Origin: Microbotryum violaceum
Taxonomy: Eukaryota
Length of the DNA: 64,000 bases
Assembly (NCBI GenBank): GCA_001244265.2
Contig: CDLV01000007.1
Span: 1 to 64,000, forward strand
Reading direction: 5' to 3'
The notes under the pieces were generated by a model that was given only the letters and a program-made list of their open reading frames with translations, searched no databases and was not told the DNA's origin. The translations under genes were made by a program, and so were the position numbers. This document shows, in pieces, positions 1-64,000 of the stretch (positions within the stretch are counted from its first letter, which is position 1; each line of letters starts with the position of its first letter).

Positions 1-16
1 AAACCCTGAAATGGGA

Positions 17-230
17 CGATCCCGGGATCGTGCCCCCGATTTGAAATCGGTGGAGCGATTTGAAATGCATCTGAAATCAGCGGAACGGTTTGAAATGCAT
101 TTGAATCGGCGGACCGATTTGAAACGCATTTGAGATCGCGCGCACCGATTTGAAACGCATTTGAAATCGGCCGAGCGATCCAAATGCATCTCGAATCGAT
201 CCAAATGAGGTTCAAATCCGCGGGATCGAT
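17..230. repeat. Array of ~31-bp quasi-palindromic repeats
   Basis: About 5 units of consensus CGATTTGAAA(T/C)GCATTTGAAATCG, plus the perfect palindrome CGATCCCGGGATCG at 17-30. Confidence 0.8.
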
Positions 231-316
231 CCATGCCAACGGTCAATAGGGGCACATAACTGTGTGAAAGGGCCGATTGCGAAGGTAGAGTGGACCATTA
301 TGTTACTATTATCAAA

Positions 317-59191: not shown

Positions 59192-60148
59192 GACAGTTGG
59201 ACAGAGCGCGGCCGAATCGCAGGCAGAAGGCGAGAGCAGTGCGAGAAGCGCGAGGAGGTTGCAGTCGGCTGACGTGCTGAGCTGCTGAGAGCGGCAGTCA
59301 GCGCGTCAGCGGCCGGCGACTAGGGCTTATCTGCTTATTCTCGGCTACCAGTGGATCAGGCTGCGATCGAGGCGTCAACCATCATAATTGTCTGCAATTT
59401 TTTTTTTCACTAGTCAGTCAGCTCGACATTGGAGACCACCTAGGTAAGTTGAATGGTACTTTAATGTAAGCACTCCAACCCCAAACGCCAAATAGTACCC
59501 AAATGCCAGTGACGGTCCGACAGCTTTGCCCCACACTGCGTTCGCTGCTCGACTCGGAATGCAGCTGACTCACACAAAGCTGCAGTGAGACTTGCAGCCT
59601 CTACAATCGCAGTGAGTTCATGGAACACTATATCCTCGCCCGTCCGATCCAGTTCATCGGTCTTGCAACTCGTTGTATAGCGGCGTGCTCTACCGTGCCT
59701 ACTAGTCCTAGTAGTGCTCGTGCGACCTGAAAATCCCTTCTACCGCGGACCCCCCCACATGTCACATGCCCGCCCCCACATTGGCACCGATCAGCTTCAC
59801 AGCCTTGAGCTCGGCCGCTCGAACTCGGAGCTCGCATGTACTTAGGTGACCGAGGTGACTTTTGTCGACCCGCAACTGGATTTTGAACTCTTGCCTTCCA
59901 TGCTGAGCAGATTGATCAATTTTAAAGGAGTGAAGGTGGTACGATTAAGGAATGCGGCGGCCACCTTTTCTTTCGCTGTAATCAAAACCATCGGGCCAAC
60001 GGCTTATTCGCCGGAAATCGCGCTGAAGATGGCTCAGATAGAGCTACATTCCAGAAATGAATATATTGAAGCGTCGTTCGTACTTACAATTTATCGGAAC
60101 GCCTCATCGTGTATTTGAGCAGCACAGCACTGTCCTTTCCAGCCACCC

Positions 60149-61325
60149 TCAACTGAAGGCGGCATCGGCTTGGACAATAGCCGGCCGCGGCGGATTGAAG
60201 CGCGCTTCGCCCCAATCGACGATGAAGAGTCGACCATCGGCGCGCTGTAGGACATTGTCCGCTCGCTCATCCCAATGAAACAACCCTTCCTTTTCGAGCA
60301 ACTCAAACGCCGCCCTAGATGTGTATTGGAGCGACCATCAATCTTGACAGGCTGCAGAAGTACGGTGTCACACACAAGTGTAGGATGGGACTCACTTGGC
60401 CTCTCTCCCGACCGATGAAGAAGAGGAGATCAATTCCTGGTCCGTAATCCGCTCTCCACCGTCTTCCATCACGAGCACGAACCCCCCTCCATCCCACCCG
60501 CTCCTGAAGAGGCCTTGAAACTTGGGAAAGTACGCTTGTGCAGCAGGGGAAAGCCGATGTACGATTTGCGTGTAGATGAAATACTCGCGAGCGACCGACG
60601 TTGCGAACTCGGCTGGAACGACTTTGGCGACGATCGAGACGGGATCGTCGTCTTTAGCGACCCATGACGAGACGACTTCGTCCTTTGGCCGCGATCGTCG
60701 AGACCACTTTGCCTTCCATACCCTGGCTGACCGACCGTGCCCAAGCGGAGTGATAAGATCGAGACGATCGAGCTTTGCCGCATCCGCGAGTGACATGTCG
60801 AACCAGGGTAGGACATCCGGGACCTTGTCGGCGGCCTCACACAAACCGGATCCGAAGAACTGACCCCGACCCAACATCGAAAAAGTCAGAAGACAAGAAC
60901 ACAACAGAAAAGACGAGAAGGCAGAGAAGAAGAAGCGGCGCACTCACGCTGTCGCACTCGAGTACCACGCCCATCGCGACCATGCGGGAATCCGTGTTGG
61001 TTTCGGCATCACAAATAATCTGTCCCATTCTTCAGAGGTCCGAATGGGGACGCGCCTCGAGAAAGCGTCTGATGTAACCTCAACACCCACTTGACTACTG
61101 TGGTACTCCGGATCGTGCCCAACAACGACAAACTCGACTACCGTGTCCGGCGTACGACCCAATTGACTGCCGAGCTCCGCCGCGCTGAACGGGTGTTCGG
61201 TGGTTCGGCGTGCACCCTCCACGGCTCCACCTGCGACCAGTGTGACCTTCTCGATCAAGCTTTGGATGGCCAGATCTCCTTGTGCACGACCGACGACTCA
61301 CCGACGACAACTGTGACTCGATTGA
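60149..61325 (-). pseudogene. Kinase B, copy 2
   Basis: Duplicate of 13305-14480. Confidence 0.8.
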
Positions 61326-64000
61326 CCCGGCGCCGGATTAGGCAATCCTACCCGCGCGCGCGACGACCTCCGATCCTGTCCCTGAGCGCTAGTCGACTCC
61401 TGGCTCTAGCTACCCTAGTACATTCGCGAACGGAATTAGGTTAATCGCGCGAATAGCAGGGCACTTTGGTTCCGAACATCGCAACTCTGGTCCCACATCG
61501 GAGGCGACTCTGGTTCCACATCGGAGGCGACTTTGGGATCACATCGGAGCGGACTTTGGGATGACATCGATGCGGACTTTGGGATCACATCCGAGGTCAT
61601 TGTTGTACCACGTTCATGGGGACTTTGGTACCACATAGTATAGACGCCTGTATCTCTTGCAATGTGTGATGTATCACTCTGGGAACAGTAGTTTGATGCA
61701 TGTATAGGTCTATAGTACTTCTGGCCGCAACTTCCCCAGTAACCTCCAGCCCCTCAGCTTCTGTTCTGGTCTTACAAGAACAACTACATCAATCCCGCAC
61801 CTCGTCCCGCCATCCTCGCTATCGCCTGCTGCCTACGGCTCAGCAACCTCAACCCTGACAGGAGATCAAGATTGCAGAAGGAAGACCAGAGCGATTTCTA
61901 CACAGAAGCCCTATTTATAGCCGCAGGAAAGCCCAGGGAAAGCGACAGAAACTCATGGAAGCAATTTGAAGCCAAAGGAAGTGATCGAGGCGCAAGATCA
62001 TAGAGATAACTGGAAGCTCCTAGAAAGTTTCCAGCGCTGAGTAAGCTGCGCGGTGGCGCTGCGCTCAGACCTCGGACTGCTGATTCGTGACACAAGGGGA
62101 CCACACCGGTGACATTTTCGGTAGGACGTCTCAGAATTTGGGTGTGTAGCTCTTCATTCTCTCATCACCTGATTGTGTCCTATTCTCTGAAGTGCGACTT
62201 GACTTCTGATAAATCGCACTTTTCACAATGCATGCATGACCAGAAATTTCTCGCATGACCCTCAGCTGCGCACCCAACACAGCATCGGACAGTGCAGTAG
62301 AAGGCTGTGGGCAAATTGATGGGCAGTGCAATACAGAGGGCAACTGGTAAATCTCAGGTTCTATCTGCCATGTGGAGACCCGAGTATTCAAGACGATTTC
62401 GATCGCAATGTTGACCATCGGTGGATTTTCCCCGCGCCGGCGGGTACCCTGACTCAAAAACCGAGCCACTTTCAGTGCCACTACAGTACGATCTGGTGAT
62501 GACCCCCATTCTTACAAAGAAGATTTCAAGCAAACAGAACCAAGGAGACCGATTGAGATACCACCAGAAGTGTCATCTGCAAAGGCTTCCTTGGTCGACA
62601 GTGGAAACAGTCGGAGGCCAGCAATAGCTCGCAGGCCACTCGTGCACTCTGATGCGAGGAGGAATAGCAGAGTACTACGAAGAACAACATCGTGATCCTG
62701 ACTCAATGATGTTCGTCCAGGTGTATACACCCCACTTTTCTGTCCATGGCTAACTCTGAGCTTCTGTCTTTACGATGTAACAGTAGTACATGTACCGGTG
62801 AGAGCACGCAACAGATCGGGTCACACGGCAGAGAGCACATGAAAGGCGCAGGTGTGATTGGCATCAAAGTCACCTGTTTTTCAGCACCGGGGCAGATATT
62901 ATTGGTGTATTGTCAAAATCATTCCTCAACATCAAACTAGAATGAGTTAAATCATACACAAACATCTTGCCAGGGGTATTGAGTACGTCGTCATGTATCT
63001 GAAATGTCGAGAGTCCAATGTCGACGCAAACGTACAACTGTCTTAGTGGCTGCTGCGTGGCTTAAAGTGGCCAAGACAACACCATTGACAAGCACCGAAA
63101 AACAGATCGAGTATGGGACCAGTTTAGCCTTAGATCGAGTACACATTAGAGTGTGGGGGTAAATGGAGTCTGATAATTAGCAATGTGATCTCTGCTGAGA
63201 TCTCAGGAAGTATCAACAAAGACCAGGCACGGACTTCGGGCATCTGACTGGCCTGACTGCGCACGCTATAAACACCAAACGCACTGGCAGAAATTTGAAA
63301 GCGCACTCACTAAGCGCAACCAAAAAGAATGCCCGCTTATCTTATCGCCAGCAGCAGAGGACATTCCTCCTGGATCTCTAGCTGACCTGTCAGACCTCCC
63401 GCTGCCGGCACTACTGCTGGGCAGTAACTTTTTCAAGCGGGCTAGAGCGCATTTAAGCGGTAGCCAAGCCCTGCCAGCGTTGGTTGCCTCTCGGTCGTAT
63501 GGTTGCTACTTTGCATTCCCTGCACTTCCGGGGGAGGGCAATATTGTATGACATGAAGAGACACTATTCAATGAAAAGGCAAAAGCACGCGAGCGCTCGC
63601 ATCATCTGTTTGGATTGAGGCTTTTGGAACAAGAGCCTTCGATTCTAGCCATTAAAAATTTCACCAAGTTTCGTCATCACTGCCATCATCTTCCGCATTA
63701 AAGTCCCACTCCTCAAGCCCAAATGCACCGTTGTCTGTGGCTTCGATAGAGTAATGACTCAAATCGTCGCTCGAATGATCACTCATGTCAAGTCAACTCC
63801 TTCGTTCGTGTTCAAGTTGTCGTCCGTCTCATCAATTGTGTCACCAGGGCTGCGGGCAAACGAAGTCAAATCCGGCAGGCCATCCGCTGTCGTTTGCTGA
63901 AAAAGTTCAGGTTCGTCGGTACACCAAAGCCGAAGGGCCACGCACCCTTCCATCGGTTGTTTGCCCGTGTCTTGGGTGCACTGCCACAGGTAGTAATCAA

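Follow-up and report, generated by a model that had tools for sequence, protein, structure and literature searches.

Overlap-layout assemblers such as PBcR/Celera with Quiver polishing can leave untrimmed overlaps or extra laps on circular or tandem DNA. Helitrons, in turn, are described in part of PMC5876387 as making circles and head-to-tail arrays, both defined by a precise junction of the element's 3' end with its 5' end. The subject of the present analysis is a stretch of 64,000 nt (positions 1 to 64,000 of contig CDLV01000007.1, assembly GCA_001244265.2; hereafter the window), which is transposon-rich nuclear DNA of the fungus Microbotryum lychnidis-dioicae and in which a 46.84-kb unit carrying an autonomous Helitron begins a second time. 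On balance, the favoured explanation is that the segment is a recent head-to-tail amplification left unresolved by the assembler. The Helitron, inserted once and in the ordinary way, is a passenger in this unit and not the maker of the repeat.

Comparison of the window with itself by megablast aligned positions 1-17156 with positions 46799-64000 at 99.57% identity over 17,215 columns, with 2 mismatches and 48 gap openings, and chance as the source of this match is ruled out. The near-perfect 46.8-kb repeat over 17 kb that an earlier note had read from the sequence was thus recovered. The offset between the two copies is 46798 at the start of the repeat and 46844 at its end, the latter giving a length of 46,844 bp for one clean unit (17157-64000). 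The contig runs 1.37 times, or more, round this unit. The sequence is unbroken across 46798/46799, where the end of the unit adjoins its start head-to-tail. Comparison of the unit with itself found no internal long direct repeats beyond 237-nt long terminal repeats (LTRs) and small arrays. A long internal direct repeat was accordingly rejected, both as a substrate for recombination and as the maker of a loop.

The partial first lap (copy 1) and the second lap of the same sequence (copy 2) differ by 49 events, comprising 48 insertions or deletions (indels) and one CG/GC swap; the number of true single-base substitutions among these 49 events of the 17-kb alignment is zero. The earlier statement that the copies differ essentially only by small indels therefore holds. 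Copy 1 is the shorter in 38 events (59 bases) and copy 2 in 10 events (13 bases). The differences are concentrated at one end, with 47 of the 49 lying within positions 1-6747 (binomial P ~4e-17 under a uniform spread); each of the remaining two alters the length of a homopolymer by one base, a G run at 10407 and a T run at 12555. Their density falls in steps, from 25.6/kb (1-312) to 7.5/kb (313-4700), 2.9/kb (4701-6747) and 0.19/kb (6748-17156). The indels had been said to fade with distance from base 1; this is correct as regards their position, but the fading is step-like and not smooth. The densest cluster of errors in copy 1 (8 in 312 nt) lies within and just past a 30-nt minisatellite.

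The short-read evidence consists of assembled contigs only. Part of 26001-36000 is carried by 18 of the 19 runs listed (5 studies), and 15 runs hold at least half of the words of that interval. Four runs (X1, X15, X2 and X12) were compared over 44001-64000, with depth taken as the word depth of the contigs. X1, X15 and X2, whose libraries date as a set from 2010, 2014 and 2016, match the window almost perfectly, and X12, which bears another organism label, differs by about 0.4-4% in the pieces listed.

The Helitron frames and the short-read contigs agree on which lap is faulty. Helitron blocks of 640, 619 and 316 amino acids (aa) are open in copy 2, whereas copy 1 has fragments of at most 275 aa. 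The Rep/helicase exon blocks contain 33 of the 49 differences, and a 19-nt gap in copy 1 at 3484 deletes part of a conserved stretch of Rep. The contigs of X1 cover copy 2 at 57197-60620 and those of X15 at 57197-61066, with 0 gaps and with both homopolymer sites included. Among the 12 short-read indels listed, of 29 in all, none fell at a difference site. Copy 1 is the carrier of consensus errors, since it breaks Helitron frames that are open in copy 2 and since the short-read contigs side with copy 2. These errors pile up at base 1, indicating that base 1 is a contig end. The underlying molecules are nearly identical as far as visible. Read error at a contig end and nearly identical molecules had both been proposed in the earlier note, and both proposals are borne out by the broken frames of copy 1, the restriction of the differences to indels and the agreement of the short-read contigs with copy 2, even at the two homopolymer sites.

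If the contig were literally right, it would consist of two direct copies of 17 kb (or longer) round a single-copy piece of 29.6 kb, with a break in the left copy. The window shows exactly such a layout, and contigs often break in long repeats. However, this structure predicts a depth of 2:1 for 53185-61128 against 44001-45587, and the observed ratios of the pieces present twice to the pieces present once were 1.16 in X1, 1.11 in X15 and 0.75 in X2 (depths for X1 in Table 1). Since these ratios are far from 2, the literal layout is rejected as very unlikely, and the contig is taken to circle a cyclic path of equal dosage. The choice that had been offered at the outset, between a tandem array, a circle and an assembly wrap-around, is sound in view of this equal word depth.

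Equal depth of all parts would also suit a single-copy linear locus at which a chimeric read, or a false overlap through one of the dispersed repeats by the Helitron, led the assembly round and the second lap re-used reads. In line with such a pure assembly artefact, the contig starts in sequence with a local word depth of 4-5x (46002-47335), the unit is full of high-copy repeats, and a passage of PMC5967549 describes the short contigs in reference assemblies of this species as often poorly assembled and repeat-rich. An artefact is nevertheless rather unlikely. The Helitron coding region stands at the dosage of its flanks in X1 and X2 (1.06 of the unit depth in each; 1.59 in X15, which holds diverged extra copies) and not at that of a two-copy repeat, so that no second identical Helitron is at hand for a false loop. 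The repeats to be bridged between the Helitron and the low-copy pieces, at 45588-47335 (4-6x local depth) and 52005-53184 (30-50x), are only about 1.2-1.7 kb long, much shorter than long reads. In copy 2 the two joins are cleanly polished and agree with short-read contigs, and the dangling end of copy 1 independently carries flank, Helitron, repeat and low-copy side. In three runs, the depth of the unit is also about 3x that of the lowest real variant contigs. The adjacency of the end of the unit, the Helitron and the start of the unit is probably real, because there is no spare Helitron, the repeats are short, the joins are clean and the unit has no long internal direct repeat.

The copy number was gauged against the lowest-depth variant contigs of the same run, a level below one copy being impossible in a clonal haploid. 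With this yardstick, which is not a genome-wide baseline, the unit stood at 3.5x in X1 (lowest variant contig 194.2), 3.6x in X15 (196) and 3.0x in X2 (6.54), with ranges of 2.2-4.5x, and the homologous pieces in X12 stood at 1.2x. These values give a hint that the unit is present in about three copies. The yardstick variant at 61118-61159 (a skip of 40 plus AT) recurs in X1, X2 and X12 and lies within a high-copy element whose start is at about 61099; variants in this interval were set aside as differences between unit copies and were used only as a measure of depth. In X15, the depth rises at 59254 from 627.7 to 836.7, an increment of 209 that is near the lowest variant depths. The contigs of X15 break at 59254-59283, and a 1978-nt contig of X12 begins to match at 59254 after 99 unmatched letters. 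There seems to be a second locus or haplotype that shares only the part to the right of 59254. X12 lacks cover in the bins 44001-44667, 53339-54005 and 56674-58674, from which no conclusion is drawn. A passage of PMC5967549 gives an Illumina coverage of 54-350x for strains of M. lychnidis-dioicae; if the runs used here were of that kind, word depths of 570-880 would lie above single copy, but the figure is not treated as evidence.

Joints that go back by about 1.19 kb occur in one very low-depth contig each of two runs from different studies, from 47135 to 45944 in X1 (depth 5.87) and from 47133 to 45945 in X15 (depth 6.77), with G/C filler between. They were rejected as junctions of a small circle or duplication, given that they have less than 1% of the local depth and lie between the foot of the GC-rich 3' hairpin of the Helitron and a C run. 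They are probably sequencing or graph artefacts.

A 46.8-kb extrachromosomal circular DNA (eccDNA), whether or not a chromosomal copy exists beside it, would likewise yield a linear contig whose overlapping ends were left untrimmed. The cyclic path, the equal dosage round the unit and the possible excess depth agree with a circle, and fungal eccDNAs carrying genes and LTR elements are known from part of PMC9694575. Because a circle and an array have the same sequence, evidence specific to a junction is impossible. The excess is alike (3.0-3.6x) in the libraries of 2010, 2014 and 2016, as would rather be expected of a copy number fixed in the chromosome, and the circles of Magnaporthe are described, in the same part of that source, as many low-copy species needing enrichment. 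A megablast search of 17157-42000 against 72,556 plasmid and 50,697 phage records gave 0 matches, and the circle would thus be without replicon, plasmid or phage similarity. A circle is therefore clearly improbable. The similar excess in the three libraries, the ordinary nuclear, transposon-rich content and the description of eccDNAs as low-copy together favour a chromosomal array. A plasmid or phage origin of the segment was rejected on the absence of database matches and the fungal nuclear content. A search for telomere repeats gave 0 matches in the window.

The Helitron itself is intact in appearance. Its Rep/helicase gene consists of four open blocks on the minus strand of copy 2, at 52173-50254 (640 aa), 50200-48344 (619 aa), 48296-48063 (78 aa) and 48138-47191 (316 aa), with gaps of about 50 nt between them. 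The Rep (HUH) endonuclease domain was matched by PF14214 (Helitron_like_N) at an E value of 4.5e-46 (157.9 bits against a cut-off of 28.9), and there is a GLPHAH motif at the beginning of exon block 2. A Pif1-type helicase follows downstream of Rep on the same strand and in the right order (PF05970, E 5.9e-51; PF21530, E 6.7e-18). A few nucleotides past a hairpin, CTAG is found at 47128-47125 on the minus strand (320-317 in copy 1), followed by TTTGAG. This hairpin and CTAG, with T in the flank and directly past the last exon block, is by its sequence a canonical Helitron 3' end. Another CTAG (46181-46178), which follows an AT palindrome, was dropped as the 3' end in favour of the GC hairpin and CTAG next to the last exon. 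The 5' end was bracketed between 52174 and about 52630. The element is about 5.5 kb long and lies wholly inside the 46.8-kb unit; outside the element, 316 nt separate it from base 1 of the window (326 nt when counted in copy 2).

These features bear on Helitron-driven rolling-circle amplification, in which read-through past the 3' end would have captured about 41 kb and a "mega-Helitron" circle or concatemer would have integrated or persisted. The unit does contain one Helitron with an apparently intact Rep/helicase gene, an element of the kind for which circles and head-to-tail arrays are described (PMC5876387, in part). According to the same part of that source, such products carry the precise 3'-to-5' junction, whereas here CTAG is followed by TTTGAG and flank. 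No junction of the 3' end with the 5' end (RTS-to-LTS) is present, the CTAG end running into non-Helitron flank in both copies. The canonical terminator of hairpin and CTAG is intact and internal to the unit; by the 5' side of the Helitron, where an inverted fragment of another Helitron lies, no second terminator was found and none was sought. Since the CTAG end joins ordinary flank and not the 5' end of the element, a Helitron rolling-circle origin is unsupported and is credited with hardly any probability. The earlier note was correct that CTAG is followed by TT. Its connection of the repeat with the rolling-circle transposase is not sustained, as the element is a single insertion of about 5.5 kb inside the unit, with a 3' end that runs into ordinary flank and with base 1 outside it. 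Very little credence is likewise given to the proposal that a self-maintained circle or a Helitron read-through concatemer mobilised about 41 kb, including a copia element and two FunK1 (fungal protein kinase) genes, and raised it about three-fold, with a single copy in a related lineage.

A very recent tandem amplification in the chromosome, of the order of three copies, would account for the contig as follows. The contig would start inside a head-to-tail repeated, transposon-rich nuclear segment with a unit of 46.84 kb. Units that are identical and longer than the reads would form a loop for the assembler, and the array could not be resolved for this reason. The layout would circle until it ran into reads placed earlier, and one or two corrected reads would cover the dangling end that was left. 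During polishing, the raw reads would fit the accurate second lap better, and the dangling 6.7 kb would stay at about 99% accuracy; positions 6748-17156, equally good in both laps, would be polished in both. The first ~6.7 kb would thus never have been polished, presumably since the raw reads went to the clean second lap, and this explanation fits the step-like error profile. The Helitron, the copia element and the FunK1 genes would be passengers. A chromosomal location and this copy number are the most likely. The long-read assembly of this strain is reportedly that of Badouin et al. 2015. Long-read genomes of this fungal group were made with PBcR and Quiver, as stated in part of PMC5967549.

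Several points weigh against a tandem amplification in the chromosome. The figure of about three copies comes from a handful of low-depth contigs and depends on the ploidy of the samples. X1, X15 and X2 may come from the same strain or source sample, which would make them independent libraries and not independent strains. In the contig data, no read or contig was seen to run from the unit into unique flanking sequence. Nor was a long read directly seen to span the Helitron from one low-copy side to the other, and the repeats at 45587-53185, 7.6 kb in all, are too long for short-read contigs to bridge. The right contig end is out of view, and a circle would give the same picture as an array.

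The features of the window are collected in Table 1. In the first Pfam scan, 9 of 24 long open reading frames (ORFs) had at least one match at E values up to 0.01, and the content consisted of the Helitron, Ty1/copia domains (PF14223, PF22936, PF13976, PF25597 and PF07727) and FunK1 kinases (PF17667). Wider scans gave matches for 4 of 144 and 2 of 71 ORFs, which were the inverted Rep fragment, a weak zf-RVT match and the two kinases again.

Table 1. Features of the 64,000-nt window, with X1 depths of the pieces present once and twice
Feature	Coordinates	Strand	Evidence or value
Copy 1, partial first lap at contig start	1..17156	n/a	~6.7 kb at start error-rich, 47/49 differences
One clean unit, 46,844 bp	17157..64000	n/a	17157-46798 single in window; low-copy pieces match short-read contigs, 0 gaps
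Copy 2, well-polished second lap of repeated part	46799..64000	n/a	Self-alignment, short-read contigs, open frames
Pieces present once, X1 depth	44001-44745, 45214-45587		650.5, 571.7
Pieces present twice, X1 depth	Six low-copy pieces between 53185 and 61128		588.9-879.1
Autonomous Helitron, intact-looking	47125..52630	-	PF14214, PF05970, PF21530; ORF map; 3' end; 5' end bracketed only
Helitron in copy 1, frames broken by indel errors	317..5790 (upper bound approximate)	-	ORF map
Helitron 3' hairpin, 10-bp GC stem, 3-nt loop	47136..47158	-	Fold -13.3 kcal/mol, z -3.04, 0/200 shuffles as good
30-nt minisatellite x5.1, just outside Helitron 3' end	46837..46988 (copy 1 ~39-190)	n/a	Tandem-repeat search
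Truncated inverted Helitron Rep fragment, high-copy family	52630..53215 (copy 1 ORF 6011-6322)	+	PF14214 1e-06 and 1.4e-17; copy 1 1.5e-09
Ty1/copia LTR retrotransposon	37381..42148	+	LTRs 37381-37617 and 41771-42007; gag, integrase, RVT_2 in copia order
FunK1 gene, two ORF pieces	27562..29381	+	PF17667 3.2e-11 and 0.0027
FunK1 kinase gene	30995..32083	-	PF17667; MVLG_07171 match
Retroelement remnant (zf-RVT)	18526..18855	+	PF13966 E 0.0002, below curated cut-off

The truncated Rep fragment lies head-to-head with the 5' side of the intact Helitron and belongs to a far more abundant family, with a word depth of 30-50x local depth. One of the two elements may have been inserted into the other.

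The copia element is young. Its LTRs of 237 nt are 100% identical, and PF14223, PF13976, PF25597 and PF07727 follow one another in the order of Ty1/copia elements. A single in-frame TGA (39379-39381) divides the pol frame (38353-39378 and 39382-41784) despite the identical LTRs, and gag (37659-38540) is in a different frame from pol. This TGA may represent a genuine stop, a site of recoding or an inactivating mutation of recent origin. At 14 nt past the 3' LTR there is a second 127-nt copy (42022-42148, equal to 37535-37661), made up of the last 83 nt of the LTR and 44 nt of the leader. The program TRF reads the region 41925-42148 as a 97-nt unit repeated 1.9 times.

The two FunK1 genes face each other. 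The ORF on the minus strand matches MVLG_07171 of M. lychnidis-dioicae p1A1 Lamole, the only protein returned, at 100% identity across 94% of the ORF; in an older assembly, MVLG_07171 is modelled as a "partial" gene and lies on a 12.9-kb contig. The interval 23954-24558 contains a tandem array with an 84-nt unit (92% matches), and further diverged copies continue up to 24558. A dispersed repeat (23461-23876 and 56030-56457, 75-79% similar) is common to the once-only and the repeated parts of the unit.

The main value of these results concerns genome quality. Bases 1 to ~6750 of the contig are an error-laden, redundant lap, and gene models in them, such as the frameshifted Helitron gene, are artefacts. 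If the approximately three-fold dosage is true, a transposon-rich region of the anther-smut genome has undergone a very recent 47-kb amplification to about 140 kb in total. The amplified locus would carry an apparently active Helitron, together with a young copia element and FunK1 kinase genes. It would then be a clean example of the growth of transposon-rich regions and a copy-number variant to allow for in population-genomic depth analyses of M. lychnidis-dioicae. Were Helitron read-through the true origin, the locus would be a natural large-cargo rolling-circle amplification in a fungus. The contig start is an assembly feature of a known kind, and it probably marks a gain in copy number that is real but ordinary.

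Compared with described systems, the locus differs from the circles and arrays of Helitrons such as Helraiser (PMC5876387, in part). An autonomous Helitron with HUH Rep, Pif1 helicase and a 3' hairpin with CTAG is present in the unit, but there is no 3'-to-5' junction, the period of 46.8 kb is about 8 times the length of the element, and the Helitron is a passenger. A circle like those of the Magnaporthe oryzae circularome could carry LTR elements and genes and would assemble in the same way; those circles, as far as part of PMC9694575 describes them, are numerous, low-copy and seen after enrichment, whereas here the signal is at least at bulk genomic depth in three libraries. The likeness to untrimmed overlaps or extra laps in long-read assemblies lies in the start of a linear contig that recurs further on, the indel-only differences at the contig end and the uniform depth. 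In contrast to those cases, the DNA here is transposon-rich and comes from a fungal nucleus, not from a virus, a plasmid or an organelle; the overlap amounts to 17.2 kb or more, and its second end is out of view. A recent tandem segmental duplication or amplification, arising through unequal exchange or an error of replication, differs in that no long direct repeat to mediate exchange is visible inside the unit and neither boundaries nor flanks of an array were seen, but it shares with this locus identical head-to-tail units, equal dosage and the hint of about 3 copies against 1 in X12.

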